DNA of 64,000 nucleotides from Verrucomicrobiota bacterium (GTDB lineage Bacteria > Verrucomicrobiota > Kiritimatiellia > UBA8416 > JABMPJ01): the NCBI GenBank assembly GCA_018648805.1, contig JABGQM010000010.1, positions 25,486-89,485 of the forward strand, given 5' to 3'. Of this stretch, positions 8,479 to 62,787 are shown piece after piece. Each line of letters opens with the position of its first letter. Positions within the stretch are counted from its first letter, which is position 1. Below the pieces are notes generated by a model. That model saw only the letters and a program-made list of their open reading frames with translations, ran no database searches and had not been told where the DNA came from. The position numbers were made by a program, and so were the translations under genes.

Positions 8479-9603
8479 ATGAAAGCTTTGCGATACAAAG
8501 GCCTTTGCAGAAGAGCGCTTCTTCTGGTGGCCGTGATGGTGGCTATGGGGGGGCTGCCGCTGTTGGGGTTGTGGCTGGCCAGGCGCCCGGTCAGGCCTTG
8601 TCTTGCGTTTCCGCCGCTGACACAGTTTGTTGAGCACGCCCCCTTCGCCTGGCCGCTCTTCGGGATACTGGCGCTCTTGGCCCTCCTGACGGGCGGGGCT
8701 ATCGTGCTCAGTCTGCTCTGTGCGCGGCCGGTCGAACGCGAGCGCACGCCGTCGCGCTTCCCGCTCTGGGGGTGGGGCGGGCTGATTTTGACTGGTCTGG
8801 CGTGGGGGCTGGCGTGGAGTCGTATGGCATGGTTTGCGCCCTTCCAGGTCACTATCTTCACCCCGCTCTGGCTGGGGTACATCGTGGTGATCAACGGACT
8901 TATGGTGCGGCGCACGGGGCGTTGCCTGATGACCACGCGGCCGGGGCTGTTCCTGGGGCTGTTCCCCATGAGCGCGCTCTTCTGGTGGTTCTTCGAGTAC
9001 CTCAACCGCTTCGCCCAGAACTGGTACTACCCACCTATTCTCGAACTGGGGCCGCTGGCCTACTTTCTCATGGCCACGCTGCCGTTTGCCACGGTGCTGC
9101 CGGCGGTGCTGAGCACAGCCGACCTGCTGGGCTCACTGCCGCGTCTGGATGATGGGGCCTTGCATGGGCCGGCCCTGCGCTTGCGCCACCCGCGCCGGGC
9201 CGCGGTCGTGCTGCTGGTCTTCGCGGCGATGGGTCTGGTCGGGCTGGGGGTCTGGCCCAACCTGCTCTTTCCGCTGCTCTGGCTCTCGCCGCTGGTGCTC
9301 GTGCTTGGATTGGCGGTCCTGTGTGGCCAGACCACGGTCCTGAGCCCCGTCTCGTGGGGGGACTGGACGTTGCCGGTCCGTTTTGCGCTGGCCGCCCTGA
9401 TATGTGGTTTCTTCTGGGAGTTCTGGAACATCCGCAGTGCGGCCCAGTGGGTCTACTCGGTGCCCTATGTGCATCGCTTCCTCATCTTTGAGATGCCCCT
9501 GTTGGGGTATCTCGGCTATCTGCCCTTCGGGCTCGAATGTGTGGCGATTGTCGACTTCCTGCTGGGTGGGCGCTTCGGTCAAGGTGAGGCCCCCTTGGCT
9601 TGA
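8479..9603 (+). CDS. Polytopic membrane protein, unknown function
   Basis: 374 aa with about 9-10 hydrophobic helices and aromatic-rich motifs (FWWFFEYLNRFAQNWYY, FWEFWNIRSAAQWVY). The last ~9 codons and the stop lie inside repeat element F1. Confidence 0.6.
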   Translation: MKALRYKGLCRRALLLVAVMVAMGGLPLLGLWLARRPVRPCLAFPPLTQFVEHAPFAWPLFGILALLALLTGGAIVLSLLCARPVERERTPSRFPLWGWGGLILTGLAWGLAWSRMAWFAPFQVTIFTPLWLGYIVVINGLMVRRTGRCLMTTRPGLFLGLFPMSALFWWFFEYLNRFAQNWYYPPILELGPLAYFLMATLPFATVLPAVLSTADLLGSLPRLDDGALHGPALRLRHPRRAAVVLLVFAAMGLVGLGVWPNLLFPLLWLSPLVLVLGLAVLCGQTTVLSPVSWGDWTLPVRFALAALICGFFWEFWNIRSAAQWVYSVPYVHRFLIFEMPLLGYLGYLPFGLECVAIVDFLLGGRFGQGEAPLA

Positions 9604-9709
9604 GAGCTTGGGATACCAAGCTCAAAGGCCTGCGGGACCTCACCTTGACCTCCGCTTGGGTTAGGGTGACCTCCGCTTGGGTTAGGGTGACCTCTGCTTG
9701 GGTTAGGGT
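9571..9709 (+). repeat. F-family element, copy F1: long hairpin plus 3 x 21-bp tandem repeat
   Basis: Outer stem GGTCAAGGTGAGGCCC (9577-9592) pairs with GGGACCTCACCTTGACC (9634-9650). Apical stem AGCTTGG (9605-9611), loop GATA, CCAAGCT (9616-9622). Tandem GACCTCCGCTTGGGTTAGGGT at 9647, 9668 and 9689. Confidence 0.85.
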
Positions 9710-9776
9710 GGTGTCCGCTCTCGTCAACCGAAATGGACAGGAAAACGGGGGAGAAGGTCGAGATAAGGAGGGTGAC

Positions 9777-11264: not shown

Positions 11265-11373
11265 GAGGGGTTTTTCACTTTCTCCTATCGCTGCAAGGGG
11301 GGGTGTGCTATGACATGCGGCATGCTTTCTAGACGTTGTCCGAAAAGGGTCTAGACACAGAGAAGAAGAGAAG

Positions 11374-11515
11374 ATCCAACAACCAACAAGGAATATCCAA
11401 TATCCAAGGAAAGACCTCGCGCGATACACACGGGAATTGCGGAAGGTTGCGTGAAGTCCGACAAAGGATCCCCCCCTTGGAAATTGGATTTGAGTGTTGG
11501 CTGTTGGATATTGGG
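11374..11515. repeat. A-family hairpin, copy A1
   Basis: Left arm ATCCAACAACCAACAAGGAATATCCAATATCCAAGG. Right arm CCTTGGAAATTGGATTTGAGTGTTGGCTGTTGGATATTGGG. Loop about 66 nt. Confidence 0.75.
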
Positions 11516-12546: not shown

Positions 12547-14790
12547 GTGACCGATAGCGGGGGTCAGACCGAAGCGCCGGCCGGCCAGATCGACGCCTGC
12601 CTGGCGCAAGCGGGGAGCCGCGTGCACCTGCTCGGCATTGGCGGGGTCGGCATGGCCGGTCTCGCCATCTTGCTCAAGCAGAGCGGCTACGCGGTCTCGG
12701 GCTGCGATACGGATCCGGGCCCCCTGGCCACGGCGTTGGCGCATGAGGGCACACGGGTCTGCCGCGAACACGATCCGGAGCACGTGCGTGAAGCGGACTG
12801 GGTTATCGCCAGCACGGCGGTGCCGACCGATCACCCCGAACTCGAAGCGGCGCGCGCGGCCGGTCTGCCCGTCTTTCGGCGGGGGCACGTCTTGGCCCGC
12901 CTGGTAGCGGCCACGCCGACTATCCTGGTATGCGGCACACACGGCAAGACCACGACGGCTACCTTCATCACTCAGATGCTGCGCGCTGCCGGGCGCGACG
13001 TGGCCTGGTGCATCGGCGGCGAGTCCGACTCACTGGGCGCGGTGGCTTCCGTCGGCGCGGGCGAAGCCACACTCATGGTGGTGGAGGCCGACGAGAGCGA
13101 TGGGTCGCTGGCGGCCTATCATCCTGCCGTGACGGTTGTGACCGGAATCGAGTTTGATCATGCCGAGTATTTCGCCGACGAGACCATGCTCCTCGACTGT
13201 TTCCGCCAGGTGATCGACCAGACGACCGCGCGCGTGATCTACTGCGCCGAAGACCGTCATACCGTCGACCTGCTGGCCGGGCGTGATCAAGCGGTCGGCT
13301 ACAGCTGTGCCGATGGGGCACGCCTGGGCATTGCCCCGCTGGCGTCGGTGCCGGGCACGCACAACGATCTGAATGCCATCGCGGCGGCTATGGCGGGCGA
13401 ATGGGCCGGCCTGGCGCCGGAGGCCATCGCCGCGGCGCTCGAGAGCCGTCGCCTGCCGGCCCGCCGTATGGAGTGTGTCAGCGATGAGGGAGGCGTGCGG
13501 GTCATCTCCGACTATGCGCATCATCCGAGCGAGGTCCGGGCGCTGGTCCGCACCGCACGCGCCACGACCACAGGCCGGCTGCTGGCCGTGTTTCAACCGC
13601 ATCGCTACAGTCGTACCTACCGTCTTGGGGCAGACTTCCCGGCGGCGTTCAACGGCGTGGACGATCTTGTGTTGGTGCCCGTTTATGCGGCCTCGGAACC
13701 GGTTCTGCCGGGGGGCCGTATGTGGGCGCTCTACCGTCATTTTCGCGAGTCGGCCGAAGGCGTGTTGCCGGTCATGGCGGATTCGCTCGAGCGGGCCTGG
13801 TACTACCTGCAGCGCCGGGCCGCGCCAGGCGACACGCTCCTGGTTATCGGCGCGGGGGATGTTGAGCGCGTGGCGCGCTGGGCTGTCGCGTCGGGAGGAT
13901 GCTGGGGTGCCGACGCGATTGAGTCGCCACCTGACCGCCCCGCCGTTCTGCAGCCGGGCGTCCCGTTGGGCTCGCGTACCACCTTTGGCGTGGGGGGGGC
14001 GGGGGAATACTGGGGGCGGCTTACGACGCCGGACGAGCTGCGCGAGGTGCTGGAGTGGTGTCACCGCTACAGCATCGGATTCCGCATGTTGGGCGGTGGC
14101 AGCAACGTCCTGGTTGGCGATTGCGGCGTGCCGGGCGTGGTGGTGCGGCTGGATGGGGTGGCCTTCAACATGATCCAGGCGGTCGAAGGCGGTGTCGAAG
14201 TGGGGCCCGCCGTACCCCTGGCGCGTCTGGTGGCCAAGGCCGAGCGGTGCGGCTACGGCGACTTCTCTTTTTTGGAGGGCATTCCCGGTACGGTCGGTGG
14301 CGCTCTGGGCATGAATGCCGGGGCACACGGTGAAAGCATCTCGGAACGCATCCGGGTGATCCACTGTTTGAACCCGGATGGGTCGCCCGGCACGGTGCAC
14401 GGTCATGAGCTGAAGGTCGGGTATCGAACCGGCGGCATGCAGGGCCGCGTGGCGATCAAGGCGGTTTTGCGGCCGGGCGAGCGGTCGCCCGAAGAGAGTG
14501 CCCGCATGCGAAGCGAGTTTGCCGGGCGGCGCGTCTGGATGAAGGGGTTGCAGTCGGCCGGATCGATTTTCAAGAACCCGCCCGACGACCATGCGGGCCG
14601 CTTGATTGAGGAGGCCGGAATGAAGGGGGTCACGATTGGTGGGGCCACCGTATCGATGCGGCACGGCAACCTGATCACGGCCAGCAGCCAGGCCAGCGCC
14701 TCGGATGTGCGGGCCCTTCTGGAGACCGTGCGTGAGCGGGTGGCGGTGCAGAGTGGTGTGCGGCTGGAGACGGAAGTGGAGCTCTGGTAA
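12547..14790 (+). CDS. murC: Fused UDP-N-acetylmuramate--L-alanine ligase / UDP-N-acetylenolpyruvoylglucosamine reductase (MurC-MurB)
   Basis: N-terminal part is MurC (HLLGIGGVGMAGLA, GTHGKTTT). C-terminal part is MurB (RTTFGVGGAGEYW, GGGSNVLV, GSIFKNP). One uninterrupted frame. The start is uncertain: GTG 12547 or TTG 12523. Confidence 0.9.
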   Translation: MTDSGGQTEAPAGQIDACLAQAGSRVHLLGIGGVGMAGLAILLKQSGYAVSGCDTDPGPLATALAHEGTRVCREHDPEHVREADWVIASTAVPTDHPELEAARAAGLPVFRRGHVLARLVAATPTILVCGTHGKTTTATFITQMLRAAGRDVAWCIGGESDSLGAVASVGAGEATLMVVEADESDGSLAAYHPAVTVVTGIEFDHAEYFADETMLLDCFRQVIDQTTARVIYCAEDRHTVDLLAGRDQAVGYSCADGARLGIAPLASVPGTHNDLNAIAAAMAGEWAGLAPEAIAAALESRRLPARRMECVSDEGGVRVISDYAHHPSEVRALVRTARATTTGRLLAVFQPHRYSRTYRLGADFPAAFNGVDDLVLVPVYAASEPVLPGGRMWALYRHFRESAEGVLPVMADSLERAWYYLQRRAAPGDTLLVIGAGDVERVARWAVASGGCWGADAIESPPDRPAVLQPGVPLGSRTTFGVGGAGEYWGRLTTPDELREVLEWCHRYSIGFRMLGGGSNVLVGDCGVPGVVVRLDGVAFNMIQAVEGGVEVGPAVPLARLVAKAERCGYGDFSFLEGIPGTVGGALGMNAGAHGESISERIRVIHCLNPDGSPGTVHGHELKVGYRTGGMQGRVAIKAVLRPGERSPEESARMRSEFAGRRVWMKGLQSAGSIFKNPPDDHAGRLIEEAGMKGVTIGGATVSMRHGNLITASSQASASDVRALLETVRERVAVQSGVRLETEVELW

Positions 14791-14795
14791 CGGGT

Positions 14796-14986
14796 CGCTC
14801 CGGCCCGAGGGAAGGCCACTTGGCTCGACCGGTTCGGAATACCGAACCGCTAAGGCCTGCGTGACCTTCCCCCGGGCCTCCGCTTGGGTTATGGTGACCT
14901 CCGCTTGGGCTGGGTTGACCTTGGCTTGAAGGCGGTTTCTTCCGTTGGGCGTTGGATGTTGGATGTTGGTTGTTGGACGTTGATGT
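14796..14986 (+). repeat. F-family element, copy F3, plus a 7-bp GTTGGNN array
   Basis: Outer stem GGGAAGGCCAC (14809-14819) pairs with GTGACCTTCCC (14861-14871). Apical stem CGGTTCGG (14830-37), loop AATA, CCGAACCG (14842-49). Degenerate 21-mers at 14875, 14896 and 14917. GTTGGNN x ~6 at 14944-14986. Confidence 0.8.
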
Positions 14987-22281: not shown

Positions 22282-23520
22282 ATGCCCACGTTTTCATACA
22301 GAGCCCGCACGCGGGGCGGTGAGGCAGCGGACGGGACCGTAGAGGCCCATGACCGCCGCGCCGCGATGCAGGAGATTGAGCGCCAGGGGCTGGTGCCGGT
22401 CTCGGTGCGTGAGGGGAGTGCCCCGGCCGCGCGCGGAAAGAAGAGCAACAAGAAGGCGAAGGCGGCGCCGGTTCCCCGTGGGGCGACGCGTATGCGTCGG
22501 CGCGACGTGCTGGCCTTCACCACCGAGCTGAGCGACCTGCTGGCCTCTGGCATGACCCTGGGCAACGCGCTTAATTGCCTTGCCAGCCGCGATACGGCGC
22601 GCAGCGAGAGCGCCATCATCACGGCTCTGCGCGACGACATCATCCGTGGCACGAGCCTGTCGGAGGCGCTGGGCAAACATCCCAAGACGTTCGGGACGCT
22701 TTATGCGAGCATGATCCAGGCCGGTGAGGCCAGCGGGGCGCTGCATGAAGTCTTGGGCCGGCTGGTGGTACACTATGAGCGCATGCAGGATCTCAAGGAC
22801 AAGGTCGTCATGGCGTTGGTCTACCCGGTCATCGTGTTGGTTATGGGCGTCGGTGTTCTGATTTTTGCGATGGTAGCGGTGGTGCCCAAGTTCAAGAAGA
22901 TTTTCGATACCCTTGACCAGCAACTGCCGCTCCCGACCAAGATTCTGATGGGGCTTAGTGAGGGCACGGTCAAGTATGGTTGGGCGATCGCGGTTATCAC
23001 CACGATTGTGGTGGTCCTGCTCTTTCGTGTCACGCGCTCGGGGCAGGGACAGTTCATCTGGCATCGTATTCTGCTCAAGGCGCCCTTGATTCGCGGCATC
23101 GTGGCCTCGTCGGTCTTCGCCAACATGGCCCGTACGCTGGGGACCCTGTTGGGCAACGGTGTGCCGGCCCTGCAGGCGCTTGGCATTGTCGAACGCACCG
23201 TGACCAACGTAGTCTTACGCGGTGAACTGAAGAACGCGCGCGAGCGCGTGACGGATGGTACAACCATTTCGGGGCCGCTGGCCGCGGGCAAGGTGTTTCC
23301 GCGCATGATGACCGACATGCTCTCGATCGGGGAGCAGACCGGCGACATGCCGAGTGCGTTGGGCCACATCGCACGGCGCTACGAGAACGAGCTGGACCGC
23401 AATGTGAAGATCTTCACGACCGCGCTTGAGCCGATCCTGATTGTGCTCGTAGCGGGGTTGGTTGGGTTTATTGCGATTGCGATTGTGATGGCGGTGTTTA
23501 GTATGACGAATGGACTTTAG
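22282..23520 (+). CDS. gspF: Type II secretion inner-membrane platform protein GspF/PilC
   Basis: 412 aa with duplicated GspF domains and three TM segments. N-terminus MPTFSYRARTRGGE is typical of the family. Confidence 0.9.
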   Translation: MPTFSYRARTRGGEAADGTVEAHDRRAAMQEIERQGLVPVSVREGSAPAARGKKSNKKAKAAPVPRGATRMRRRDVLAFTTELSDLLASGMTLGNALNCLASRDTARSESAIITALRDDIIRGTSLSEALGKHPKTFGTLYASMIQAGEASGALHEVLGRLVVHYERMQDLKDKVVMALVYPVIVLVMGVGVLIFAMVAVVPKFKKIFDTLDQQLPLPTKILMGLSEGTVKYGWAIAVITTIVVVLLFRVTRSGQGQFIWHRILLKAPLIRGIVASSVFANMARTLGTLLGNGVPALQALGIVERTVTNVVLRGELKNARERVTDGTTISGPLAAGKVFPRMMTDMLSIGEQTGDMPSALGHIARRYENELDRNVKIFTTALEPILIVLVAGLVGFIAIAIVMAVFSMTNGL

Positions 23521-23760
23521 CTCCGGTCAGGGGCGCTCCGGTCAGGGCGAGGGGTTCTCGGCTGGAGAGCTTGGAATACCAAGCTCAAAGGCCTGCGAGG
23601 CGCTCCGGCCAAGGTAAGGCCCCCTTGGCTGGAGAGCTTGGAATACCAAGCTCAAAGGCCTGCGGGGACCTCACCTTGGCCTACGCTTGGGTTAGGTGGA
23701 CCTCCGCTTGGGTTAGGGTGGACCTCCGCTTGGGGTGGGTAGATCGGCTTGGGTTGGGTG
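23521..23760 (+). repeat. F-family elements F2a and F2b plus about 4 x 21-bp tandem repeat
   Basis: Two cores CT(C/T)GGCTGGAGAGCTTGGAATACCAAGCTCAAAGGCCTGCG at 23557-23597 and 23625-23664. F2b outer stem GGCCAAGGTAAGGCCCC (23608-24) pairs with GGGACCTCACCTTGGCC (23665-81). 21-mers from 23678 to 23760. Confidence 0.85.
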
Positions 23761-23800
23761 GTGTTTGGTGTTTGGTGATGTGCTAATAAGGGAGGGTGTT

Positions 23801-24190: not shown

Positions 24191-24204
24191 TCTACAGGAA
24201 GACT

Positions 24205-24335
24205 CAATATCCAATATCCAACAAGGAATGTCCAATGTCCAAGTGGGTGAGGATGGTGAATGGTGGGCCAATCGGCATGTCATTCGCAAAGCTCCCGCCC
24301 TTGGGAGTTGGGAGTTCCTTGTTGGATATTGGATG
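24205..24335. repeat. A-family hairpin, copy A2
   Basis: Left arm CAATATCCAATATCCAACAAGGAATGTCCAATGTCCAAG. Right arm CTTGGGAGTTGGGAGTTCCTTGTTGGATATTGGATG. The loop contains GTGAATGG...GTCATTCGC. Confidence 0.8.
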
Positions 24336-25002
24336 TTCAGATGCCGCGCAGTCGAGGCCCATCCATCGATCTGGCGCTACGGGTCGCTATCGACAGCGTC
24401 AATCAGGGTTCACCCTGATCGAGGTGTTGCTGGTGGTGGCGATTATAGGGGTCATGCTGACGATCATGATGCCCCAGATGATGAGCTCGATGCGTGAGCA
24501 CCAGCTGCGTGGCGCCACGCGCGTGGTGATCTCGGCCGGCCGGCACGCCATGAGTTTGGCCGTACTTTCGCAGCGCCGCATGAACGTGGTCTTCGATCTT
24601 GACGAGACGGTGCTGACGATCCGCGCGGCGGACGCGCCATCCACTATCGATGCCGACGGTCTCGGCGAGGCCGACTCCCCCTTGGACGCGGTTGTGGCCG
24701 ACGCATGGGGTGGGGGCGCTGCGGCTGAGATGGAGGCCCTCCCGGCGGATGATGATGGCGCCTACGAGGGGGCGGTGGCCATTGTCGACGAAGAGGTGGT
24801 GCACCGCTTGGAGGGGGTCGCTTTCAGCTTTATCGAGGTTGAGGGTGAAGACGGCTACCGTGCCGAGAGCGGTAAGCATACGATCATCTACTATACGAAT
24901 GGCCGCTGCACCCCGTACACGATTGGCTTCGAGGATGACGACGGCGCCAGCGCCACGATCGAGGTGGATGCCCTCGCCTCGGCGCGGGTACTGGAGAGGT
25001 AG
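24277..25002 (+). CDS. Minor pseudopilin (GspH-like); start uncertain
   Basis: Prepilin N-terminus QSG|FTLIEVLLVVAIIGVML. The frame is open through repeat A2. Candidate starts are ATG 24277 or TTG 24301/24319/24322, all inside the repeat. Confidence 0.65.
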   Translation: MSFAKLPPLGVGSSLLDIGCSDAAQSRPIHRSGATGRYRQRQSGFTLIEVLLVVAIIGVMLTIMMPQMMSSMREHQLRGATRVVISAGRHAMSLAVLSQRRMNVVFDLDETVLTIRAADAPSTIDADGLGEADSPLDAVVADAWGGGAAAEMEALPADDDGAYEGAVAIVDEEVVHRLEGVAFSFIEVEGEDGYRAESGKHTIIYYTNGRCTPYTIGFEDDDGASATIEVDALASARVLER

Positions 25003-34542: not shown

Positions 34543-34677
34543 CAATGTCCAACAGCCAACAAGGAATATCCAATGGGCAAGTGAGCGTGAACAGTGAATG
34601 GATCGCGACAGGACGGGTCATTCGCTAGTCGCACGCACTTCGGCGTTGGGAGTTCCTTGTTGGATATTGGATATTGG
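34543..34677. repeat. A-family hairpin, copy A3
   Basis: Left arm CAATGTCCAACAGCCAACAAGGAATATCCAATGGGC. Right arm GCGTTGGGAGTTCCTTGTTGGATATTGGATATTGG. The loop shares GTGAG, GTGAATGG and GTCATTCGC with A2. Confidence 0.8.
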
Positions 34678-39727: not shown

Positions 39728-39815
39728 GCTCGGGTGGCGGAATGGCAGACGCGCTAGGTTGAGGGCCTAGTGACCTTTTTTGGTCGTGAAGGTTCAAGTC
39801 CTTTCCCGAGCACCA
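39728..39815 (+). tRNA. tRNA-Leu (anticodon GAG) with encoded CCA
   Basis: Acceptor GCTCGGG/CCCGAGC. Anticodon stem CTAGG/CCTAG with loop TTGAGGG. Long variable arm GACC-T6-GGTC. T arm GAAGG-TTCAAGT-CCTTT. Ends in ACCA. Confidence 0.9.
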
Positions 39816-39888
39816 CTCCGGAGAGGGTGCTCCCTCTTGGCTGGAGTATCGCTGCGCGATAATAGGCCGGCGAGGGAGCACCCTCTCC
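39816..39888 (+). repeat. F-family-type hairpin, copy F5, directly 3' of tRNA-Leu
   Basis: Perfect 17-bp outer stem GGAGAGGGTGCTCCCTC (39820-36) / GAGGGAGCACCCTCTCC (39872-88). Inner CTTGGCTGGAG, apical TATCGC-TGC-GCGATA, then ATAGGCCGGCG. Confidence 0.8.
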
Positions 39889-40014
39889 TCCGTTCCTGGT
39901 CGTCAGCCGCTCGATCTGCCAGGCCTCAGAGGGCACCCCTGTTCCTCCGCTCCTGGATAGGTCGATTCATTGGCTGTTGTTCACAGATCGGCTGCGTTGA
40001 TAGTGTGAGACACG

Positions 40015-56556: not shown

Positions 56557-56689
56557 ATGCAACGGGTACTGTCAAAAGTTCTATAAAAAGTATGAAGGAT
56601 GGGAATCGGTGAACGATAGCGGCGACCCTCCGTCGCGCTTCGCGCTATGGAGGGCAGGCTGAGAGCGGATAACGAGGAACTCTTCGTCC

Positions 56690-56892
56690 CACACTTAAAC
56701 GTACACTTAACCCAAACCCTTACTCGGATACCCTTAACCGACCCGCTTACTCGTTGATGGCCAATTGCTTATCGACCTCACGTTGTGCCCACAACAGTCA
56801 CGGTTCAAGGGCCATGGTTCGCAGGCGGTTGAAGTGAGGCGGTTAAGGGTATCCGAGTAAGGGTGGCGAGTAAGAAAGCGATTAAGTGTAGG
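56690..56892. repeat. C-family hairpin, copy C1
   Basis: Perfect 24-nt pairing of CCCTTACTCGGATACCCTTAACCG (56717-40) with CGGTTAAGGGTATCCGAGTAAGGG (56840-63). Flanking CACTTAA/TTAAGTG words. Loop about 100 nt. Confidence 0.8.
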
Positions 56893-61305: not shown

Positions 61306-61414
61306 GTGTATCCGGTTAAGAGTGGCGACAAAGTGTGCGAGTAAGTGTAGGCACCTCTATACACTTAACCGACACCCTTACTCGGATACCCTTAACCGAC
61401 ACCCTTAACCGACC
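61296..61414. repeat. C-family hairpin, copy C2 (between convergent genes)
   Basis: Left arm GGTCGGTTAAGTGTATCCGGTTAAGAGTGGCGACAAAGTGTGCGAGTAAGTGTAG. Right arm TATACACTTAACCGACACCCTTACTCGGATACCCTTAACCGACACCCTTAACCGACC. The topB stop TAA (61303-05) lies in the left arm. Confidence 0.8.
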
Positions 61415-62618: not shown

Positions 62619-62787
62619 CCGGTTAAGTCAGGCGATTAAGCGTATCCAAGTAAGTGTTGCGGTTAAGAGTGCGACGACGTGTACGCTTAAGTGTGTGCGC
62701 TGCGCTCTCCATACACTTTCTCGGACACTTAACCGCACTCTTAAACGCCACCCTTACTCGGATACACTTAACCGACCAACTTACTCG
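62619..62787. repeat. C-family hairpin, copy C3
   Basis: The left arm is built of GGTTAAG / AGTAAG / GTATCC words and the right arm of CTTAACC / CTTACTCGGATAC words (for example GCGGTTAAGAGTGCG against CGCACTCTTAAACGC). Confidence 0.8.

Follow-up and report, generated by a model that had tools for sequence, protein, structure and literature searches.

The question raised by this locus is whether a family of hairpin-forming repeats that recur at gene ends represents a functional RNA structure or a mobile element. The repeats, here called the F family, were found in 64,000 nt from a Verrucomicrobiota bacterium of the Kiritimatiellia (assembly GCA_018648805.1, contig JABGQM010000010.1, positions 25,486 to 89,485 of the forward strand), and this whole stretch is referred to as the window. 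A first-pass annotation of the window had listed five copies, all on the plus strand, and had favoured a functional RNA, with a mobile hairpin as the alternative. Number and strand were reproduced by a scan with the core pattern GGCT-N(8-36)-AGGCCKGCG, which gives five plus-strand matches (9597, 14822, 23560, 23627 and 39839), compared to a mean of 0.42 in shuffled windows, and none of 100 shuffles reached five. The tail unit CCGCTTGGGTTAGGGT, with up to three mismatches, has seven matches in the window, again all on the plus strand, at an expectation of 0.50. F is a real repeat family that has not been described before and that is confined to a marine group of Kiritimatiellia. Its members are likely to be lineage-specific, small, non-coding and non-autonomous mobile repeats, which behave similarly to repetitive extragenic palindromic (REP) sequences or miniature inverted-repeat transposable elements (MITEs). 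The distinctive traits of F are the combination of invariant interior loops with covarying arms, a near-exclusive sense orientation, and the abutment to stop codons and tRNA ends.

Related genomes differ by the gain or loss of F at specific sites. This can be followed in loci that were fetched from other assemblies (251 kb, designated by L numbers). The gspF-gspG junction carries F in the window, in L028 (86% GspF identity), in L120/L008, and in L033 (64% GspF identity), which has a subfamily of its own. The same junction is without F in L038/L122, where a plain spacer of 50 nt is present, and in L039, L034, L032, L035 and L036. F occupies the junction between a murC/murB fusion gene and ddl (murC/B-ddl) in the window and also in genome A (L119), while this junction is empty in L120 (TAA-CC-ATG), L121 and L122, with gene spacings of 2, 3 and 33 nt. 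A single insertion is visible in the comparison of L015, which also belongs to genome A, with L126 (95% Gnd identity). The two loci can be aligned over the upstream gene's end, the TAG stop codon that they have in common and the downstream ribosome-binding region, and L015 contains an extra block of 110 nt directly after the TAG. The left junction of the insert reads ..GGGATATAG|CGCACCGG.., the right junction ..GATTAGTAG|TGGGTAAC.., and the empty site of L126 ..GGAATATAG|ATGGGAAAC.. (short form of the junctions, ..ATATAG|CGCACC.. and ..ATTAGTAG|TGGG..). The block starts at the foot of the hairpin and ends about 23 nt past it in the G/T-rich tail, and therefore the tail belongs to the mobile unit. 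L126 itself carries F at the neighboring SDR-gnd junction. In a relative whose Gnd is 93% identical to that of genome A, the approximately 27 kb examined are free of F. For the open reading frame (ORF) invaded by F1, the first copy in the window, an empty site was also sought and the attempt discarded, because the homologs were too distant (at most 56% identity) and showed only the variable C-terminal tail of the protein family.

The relationships between the copies are in agreement with spread within genomes. Only the window genome has the apical stem GAGCTTGG, which it carries at F1, F3a and F3b. Two loci of genome B have CCGTGCGG in common, and the murCB-ddl copy of genome A matches the gspF-gspG copy of genome B in arm and apex. 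Judged by these sequences, F copies are closer to one another within a genome than to the orthologous copies elsewhere, i.e., they undergo concerted evolution. The presence/absence polymorphism at orthologous sites (murCB-ddl, gspF-gspG, L015/L126) is a characteristic of MITEs, and the same is true for the small size (<300 bp), the lack of coding capacity and the copy number (5 per 64 kb, 39 per 251 kb). Filled and empty junctions, the 110-nt insertion, genome-specific subfamilies, ORFs that end inside F and partial arrays all speak for the mobile hairpin, which had been only the second choice of the first-pass annotation.

Truncated copies and partial copies in tandem are frequent. Partial tandem arrays were found in L017, L119, L120, L020, L021 and L023, and each of the first three is made up of three left parts, a single core and three units of right arm plus tail. 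Two versions of a gspF-gspG array with flanks of 99.9% identity (L120 14395-14709 and L008 6460-6704) differ by one left part of 45 nt, which is either real copy-number variation or an assembly collapse. The 21-nt tandem tails that had been described for three loci of the window were recovered with Tandem Repeats Finder after F1, F2 and F3b (9646-9710, 3.1 copies; 14877-14928, 2.5 copies; 23680-23761, 4.0 copies). Their unit (GACC-TCCGC-TTGGGTTAGGGT) joins the final bases of the right arm to the 3' flank and the G-rich tail and represents a solo 3' end of the element. Other genomes repeat longer versions of this 3' module, 36-49 nt in length, and therefore the tail arrays are one form of a general tendency of F toward the duplication of its parts. 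The window arrays are the smallest such duplication, namely of the 3'-end module. Two tail units offer four G3 tracts with loops of 3, 12 and 3 nt and could form a G-quadruplex. Three metagenome contigs, L113, L114 and L126, start inside F or its tail, and this suggests that F repeats fragment the assemblies of these genomes.

The distribution of F is narrow. An exact-pattern scan of one genome per species for 185,579 species yielded 32 matches, which are distributed over 25 stretches. The sources are four marine metagenome-assembled genomes (MAGs) of Kiritimatiellia/'Victivallales' and one contig that was binned as Pseudomonadales and stems from the same Arabian Sea sample. The pattern had no match in viral contigs, plasmids or phages. 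A comparison with Rfam, which had been proposed in the first-pass annotation, assigned F to no curated family. At the gathering threshold only the tRNA was found, and at E <= 10 only chance matches to microRNA precursors appeared, far below threshold. A literature search found no paper on repeats in Kiritimatiellia. The window sequence is also present in the marine MAG GCA_018692835.1 and in several ocean metagenome assemblies, and the closest named relatives of its proteins are encoded in Kiritimatiellae and Lentisphaerae MAGs.

The placement of F relative to genes was analyzed with genes called by a codon-usage model that was trained on long ORFs, with Pfam confirmation at exceptional loci. 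Nearly all copies are located, in sense orientation, at the very 3' end of a gene or tRNA. Between co-directional genes F is in sense orientation in 18 hits and in antisense orientation in 3, and the proposed tie to transcription thus persists in the larger sample. All three antisense hits represent one orthologous locus, the junction of a HAD hydrolase and a TPR protein gene (L018, L023). At a convergent gene pair in L029 two adjacent F copies face in opposite directions, each co-oriented with and abutting its own gene. Therefore, the orientation of F follows transcription and not one replication direction. The distances from the stop codon to GCTCCGG are -1, -1, 0, 1, 1, 1, 2, 2, 5, 5, 5, 5, 6, 7 and 11 nt (n = 15). 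The abutment claimed for the window was verified by position at three loci: at F2 the stop codon TAA occupies 14788-14790 and GCTCCGG begins at 14797, at F3 the G of the TAG at 23518-23520 is the first base of GCTCCGG, and at F4 the CTCCGG starts at 39816, directly after the tRNA-Leu end at 39815. F1 indeed contains the stop codon of its upstream ORF, a TGA (9601-9603) within the conserved GGCTTGA, and it is one of four cases in which an ORF ends inside the left arm or the core of F (F1, L007, L025, L027). Copies of F follow tRNA-Arg(TCT) in three genomes, in two of them directly. In L016 (2873-4205) a phage-type integrase gene lies beside a tRNA-Arg(TCT) whose 3' end carries F copies. The location downstream of ORFs, between unidirectional or convergent genes, is that of REPs.

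An alignment of 27 complete copies was used to derive a consensus. The F unit has a length of about 110 nt, i.e., a hairpin of about 85 nt plus a tail. It begins with the flank G(C)GCTCCGG, a G/A-rich left arm of 16 bp, the invariant CTTGGCTNGA and a variable apical hairpin, and continues with the invariant (A/T)AAGGCCTGCG, a C/T-rich right arm, the 3' flank CCTCCGC and a G-rich tail of 15-25 nt (CTTGGGKTAGGG). In the consensus the fixed segments read GCGCTCCGG before and CTTGGCTGGA after the left arm, (C)TAAGGCCTGCG before the right arm, and CCTCCGC followed by TTGGGGTAGGG after it. The predicted structure has a closing GC/GC pair and a symmetric UCC/UCC internal loop at its foot, followed by the outer stem and a UU/UGC loop. 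Above these, a GGCU/GGCC helix that is invariant and includes a fixed U.G pair leads to a purine-rich loop and to an apical stem capped by (A/G)AUA. The apical part varies between 17 nt and about 75 nt, and long versions are found at L029 4582-4725 and L009 4937-5066. A covariance model, R1, was built from the consensus alignment and run over the 251 kb of fetched loci, where it identified 39 sense-strand copies. The echoes on the reverse strand score about threefold lower, and therefore the orientation of F is well defined. In an alignment of the 39 copies that was fitted to R1's own structure, a standard pair is present in 95% of the stem cells and two-sided changes occur in 22 of 29 pairs, values that were reached by none of 500 shuffles, and partners slid out of register pair in at most 55%. 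The stems hence differ between copies and stay complementary, as had been noticed for the window, and the covariation persists after the addition of 34 further copies.

Covariation and sense orientation, which had been taken as the signature of a functional RNA, are therefore both real, but neither discriminates against a mobile hairpin. A host-selected, cis-acting RNA element of gene 3' ends, i.e., a hairpin for protein binding or RNase processing, which has spread only secondarily or is a domesticated repeat, is a possible but rather unlikely explanation of F. It would set mRNA 3' ends, stabilize upstream cistrons or uncouple the expression of genes within operons. The double changes in the stems, the sense bias and the abutment to stop codons and tRNA 3' ends are in agreement with this explanation, and so are the occupation of the same junctions in several genera and the invariance of the loop nucleotides and of the U.G pair in all subfamilies, including that of a relative with 54% GC (64% GspF identity). 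In addition, the window shows no enrichment of canonical terminator-like sites (18 versus 13.2 expected). However, orthologous presence is patchy, with very tight empty junctions in equally related genomes, one copy was inserted recently, truncated copies persist although they are unable to fold, and F is missing from the examined part of the relative with 93% Gnd identity to genome A. The stem mismatches comprise 17 G.U and 25 A.C, and thus lack the G.U excess that is expected under selection for a sense RNA. In 30 of 31 copies the antisense RNA is more stable than the sense RNA (mean difference 5.3 kcal/mol), an advantage that is largely due to a C.A mismatch common to the abundant GGCCAC/GTGACC subfamily, so that the copies are not independent observations. 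The more specific proposal that F acts as an intrinsic terminator or attenuator is very improbable, and what speaks for it is the presence of a GC-rich hairpin in sense orientation directly after genes and tRNAs. Unlike at intrinsic terminators, the hairpin is followed by CCTCCGCTTGGG in all copies and by a U-tract in none, and F does not lie at the ends of transcription units, as exemplified by its location inside essential operons, at murC/B-ddl and gspF-gspG. In L019 (2288-2760) a cobalamin riboswitch with its own canonical hairpin-U6 terminator is followed by F, and F is followed after 29 nt by the start codon of a TonB-dependent receptor gene. Transcription must therefore pass through F, both inside operons and past the riboswitch terminator, and the clade uses ordinary terminators. 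F is not a strong terminator, and the terminator or attenuator function suggested earlier is unlikely. Its copy within the riboswitch-controlled leader of L019 is a natural test case for a block of transcription or translation by F. Sequestration of Shine-Dalgarno sequences by the CCTCC motifs of the tail was also considered and was rejected, as nine intergenic folds gave no consistent pairing of the tail CCUCC with downstream ribosome-binding sites.

It is also improbable that F is a DNA-level site, which a structure-specific recombinase or an HUH nuclease would recognize in single-stranded, folded form, as with attC, REP or IS200/IS605. The strand bias would then result from the mechanism instead of from selection. 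Elements of the IS200/IS605 group and their miniature derivatives are recognized by way of folded hairpins in which some bases stay unpaired. Their ends are asymmetric, they are strand-specific, and they lack long terminal inverted repeats. F resembles them in the hairpin as a candidate for recognition, in its asymmetric ends, in its strand specificity and in the lack of long terminal inverted repeats. In contrast, they contain two subterminal hairpins, produce no target duplication and are oriented according to the replication fork, whereas in F a single hairpin occurs together with a possible TA(G) repeat and an orientation that follows transcription. A recognition of the folded strand would fit the single hairpin with conserved unpaired bases, the asymmetry of a 5' end that coincides with the hairpin foot and a 3' end that lies some 20 nt past it, a CTCCG pentamer on the same strand at both feet, the variable apical length and the G(G/T)TAG of the tail. 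Cleavage by the REP-associated tyrosine transposase (RAYT) depends on conserved mismatches in the REPs (PMC3733652). However, no gene for a cognate enzyme was found beside any copy, the orientation at the convergent pair of L029 follows each gene, and the R-box motifs of integrons are absent. An integron attC site was specifically rejected, as the R''/R' cores (RYYYAAC ... GTTRRRY) are missing from the consensus and the neighbors are housekeeping operon genes. The only Y1 gene seen, of 150 aa, is that of L120 (448-900), which scores 62 bits as an IS200/IS605 transposase and 33 bits against the RAYT model (cutoff 80). It is flanked on both sides (L120 1-1100) by inverted GCCCCGAAGGGGC/GCCCTGAAAGGGC hairpins of its own, which carry a GGATATAC tag, are unrelated to F and do not occur in the window, and the gene was therefore discarded as the mobilizer of F. 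A kink-turn, a ribozyme and a SECIS element were dropped because their defining motifs are absent from the sequence.

Several observations weigh against the interpretation of F as a mobile repeat. The fetched loci yielded neither a transposase nor an autonomous parent with the ends of F, and they also contain no F half-sites that flank a gene and no cargo gene between separated F halves. The ends of F are less conserved, and the interior loops are invariant, unlike in classical MITEs. A target-site duplication rests on one clean pair and comprises only 2-3 nt: TA or TAG is repeated at both junctions of the L015 insert, and older copies give no consistent repeat. The stop codons beside F (TAG 8, TGA 5, TAA 5) do not differ from those of all genes (76/75/32). 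This ordinary usage does not support a simple TA-target model, and targeting of the TA of TAG/TAA stop codons was rejected for lack of enrichment. Some F positions are common to fairly distant genomes, namely gspF-gspG (86% and 64% GspF identity), tRNA-Arg (three genomes) and the HAD-TPR junction (two genomes), and these shared positions could reflect retention by selection. Finally, the three F loci of the window population are identical in 3-6 independent assemblies, and therefore there is no sign of current F activity in this population. Variation of the tail arrays was likewise not seen within it, all assemblies being identical.

In comparison with known systems, F is one of the small palindromic intergenic mobile repeats, yet it lies outside the formal definitions of both REP and MITE. 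REPs are GC-rich imperfect palindromes that are located downstream of ORFs between unidirectional or convergent genes, are co-transcribed, have conserved unpaired bases and are clade-specific (PMC3733652). F is similarly a multicopy, GC-rich palindrome at gene ends, with a stem that starts about 5-12 nt after the stop codon, which makes it comparable to REPs and bacterial interspersed mosaic elements. The differences are the length (20-40 nt for REPs, a hairpin of about 85 nt plus tail for F), the lack of a GTAG/CGTC tag at the stem, where F has the 5' flank GCGCTCCGG and carries G(G/T)TAG only 12-15 nt 3' of the stem, and the arrangement, as REPs occur in inverted pairs and F in single or tandem units of the same orientation. 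No RAYT gene flanked by F was found. The Correia/NEMIS elements of Neisseria and the ERIC/IRU and RUP elements of other bacteria, all bacterial MITEs, are non-coding, intergenic and 100-170 bp long, have transcripts that form one long stem-loop and are sometimes fused to ORF ends (PMC2229807), and they have TA at their junctions, as does the F insert of L015. MITEs keep their terminal inverted repeats and vary in the interior, whereas F keeps invariant loops between variable, covarying arms. The G-rich tail of F is one-sided, without a counterpart at the 5' end, so that conserved terminal inverted repeats are absent, and the strong sense bias, the abutment to stop codons and the lack of a known parent insertion sequence are further differences. 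A minisatellite-containing MITE of Porphyromonas gingivalis (PMC4596501) is similar in being a small non-autonomous element with an internal tandem repeat. It stems from another phylum and has an unrelated sequence, and F repeats its own 3' end (arrays of 21-49-nt units).

With F as a mobile repeat, the following course of events can be envisaged. F would be co-transcribed with the upstream gene as a hairpin of -50 to -75 kcal/mol, with a stem that starts about 5-12 nt past the stop codon, and RNA polymerase would pass through it. REPs are known to block 3' exonucleases, and in Escherichia coli a REP at a distance of under 16 nt to a stop codon leads to ribosome stalling and a decrease in translation (PMC12306157). 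Correia elements are substrates of RNase III, and ERIC changes the stability of the upstream mRNA (PMC2229807). By analogy with stop-proximal REPs and with Correia/ERIC, the F hairpin may protect the upstream message from 3' exonucleases, and it could serve as a target of RNase III or impede the ribosome at termination. A secondary effect at the RNA level, by stabilization of the 3' end, processing or interference with translation termination, is thus plausible from these parallels. The invariant internal loops together with the fixed U.G pair are most likely the recognition site of a mobilizing or processing protein, which would parallel the mismatches that RAYT needs in REPs (PMC3733652). 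The sense bias would most likely be due to selection. An insertion in sense orientation might keep the stop codon, as the element begins with a G and would give TA+G, and it would place a G-rich and not a C-rich tail into the mRNA, where a C-rich tail is expected to favor the loading of Rho. A bolder version, to which only a small probability is given, is that F is a gene-end-homing, strand-specific hairpin transposon of a new type, which would insert with precision at stop codons and tRNA 3' ends and leave these intact. It would consist of a single hairpin with a single-stranded 3' tail, its enzyme would read the invariant loops, and its transcript would possibly have been co-opted as the standard operon 3'-end hairpin of the clade.

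F adds a well-defined repeat family and a covariance model to an uncultured marine phylum for which no such elements have been described, and it would explain intergenic assembly breaks in these genomes. It also represents a palindromic repeat that is confined, in one orientation, to the first few nucleotides past stop codons and tRNA ends. If this precision were the result of the insertion mechanism and not of selection, it would constitute a new targeting principle. In addition, F calls for caution, as abundant compensatory changes in stems and a fixed orientation do not alone prove a dedicated functional RNA.

In the window, the four complete copies fold as long interrupted hairpins with -52.7 to -55.5 kcal/mol and z scores of -4.9 to -8.2, and all copies described in the following are on the plus strand. 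The F1 hairpin unit (9570-9655; -55.1 kcal/mol, z -7.2; 104.6 bits with the covariance model) consists of the 5' flank GCGCTTCGG, the outer stem, CTTGGCTTGA and the apical GAGCTTGG-GATA-CCAAGCTC, followed by AAAGGCCTGCG, the right arm and the 3' flank TCCGC. Its tail (9646-9710) contains 3.1 tandem copies of the 21-nt unit GACCTCCGCTTGGGTTAGGGT, in each of which the right-arm end, the 3' flank and the G-rich tail are repeated. The F2 hairpin unit (14794-14883; -52.7 kcal/mol, z -6.1; 118.8 bits) lies within the cell-division (dcw) cluster between the murC/murB fusion gene and ddl, and its tail (14877-14937) contains about 2.5 degenerate 21-nt units. The upstream ORF (12547-14790) is a MurC-type ligase fused to MurB, and the fusion is kept in L119-L122.

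The F3 locus is located in an operon of the type II secretion system between gspF and gspG, the gene for the major pseudopilin. It begins with a solo 5' fragment of 14 nt, GCTCCGGTCAGGGG (23520-23533), which duplicates 23536-23548 and whose first G is that of the gspF stop codon. The truncated copy F3a (23534-23599), with 84% identity to F1, comprises the 5' flank, the left arm and the core, but neither the right arm nor the tail. Its region (23529-23600) forms no long hairpin of the kind described (z = -2.05). The complete hairpin F3b (23600-23687; -52.7 kcal/mol, z -4.9; 107.5 bits) is followed by a tail of 4.0 degenerate 21-nt units (23680-23761). F4 (39815-39892; -55.5 kcal/mol, z -8.2; 65.9 bits) belongs to a divergent subfamily, with the apical stem TATCGC-TGC-GCGATA and an outer stem of 17 bp, and it follows immediately after the encoded CCA of tRNA-Leu(GAG) (39728-39815). 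Direct sequence comparison revealed a degenerate second 3' half-copy behind it (about 39893-39962, ..GCCAGGCCTCAGAGGGCACCCCTGTTCCTCCGCTCCTGG..), which resembles the 3' side of the F4 core, the right arm and the tail, and the same module is present in L009, L016, L029 and L012. The copy boundaries of the first-pass annotation hold with one amendment, as 23557-23597 is only the core of the truncated copy at about 23534-23599, and its inventory of the F3 and F4 loci has to be extended by the 14-nt fragment and the half-copy.

F is not the only repeat family of the window. In a second palindrome family, arrays of CGAACAnn with a period of 8 nt pair with the downstream complement GTTCGnnT at a distance of 45-100 nt (35993-36027/36104-36138, 42908-42934/42980-43006 and 22100-22155/22224-22284). 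It is situated at operon junctions and just upstream of start codons. At the junctions that harbor F in the window, relatives carry similar GTTCAGGG/CCCTGAAC arrays, namely at gspF-gspG in L039, at murCB-ddl in L122 and at ftsQ-ftsA in L119. A third family has inverted arms of 58-60 nt, which are built from CCAATATCC / GGATATTGG repeats and are separated by a center of 18 nt (24203-24340, 34543-34676 and 11371-11512). It is found between pseudopilin genes and elsewhere, and the same family adjoins the IS200-like gene of L120. A fourth, intergenic family consists of ACCCTTACTCGGA / CTTAACCG units, which are partly in tandem with a period of 13 nt or 27 nt (56679-56753, 61337-61411 and 62713-62787). 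The first ORF of the window, in turn, contains an in-frame tandem repeat of 42 nt at 706-915, with 4.4 copies and 85% matches.

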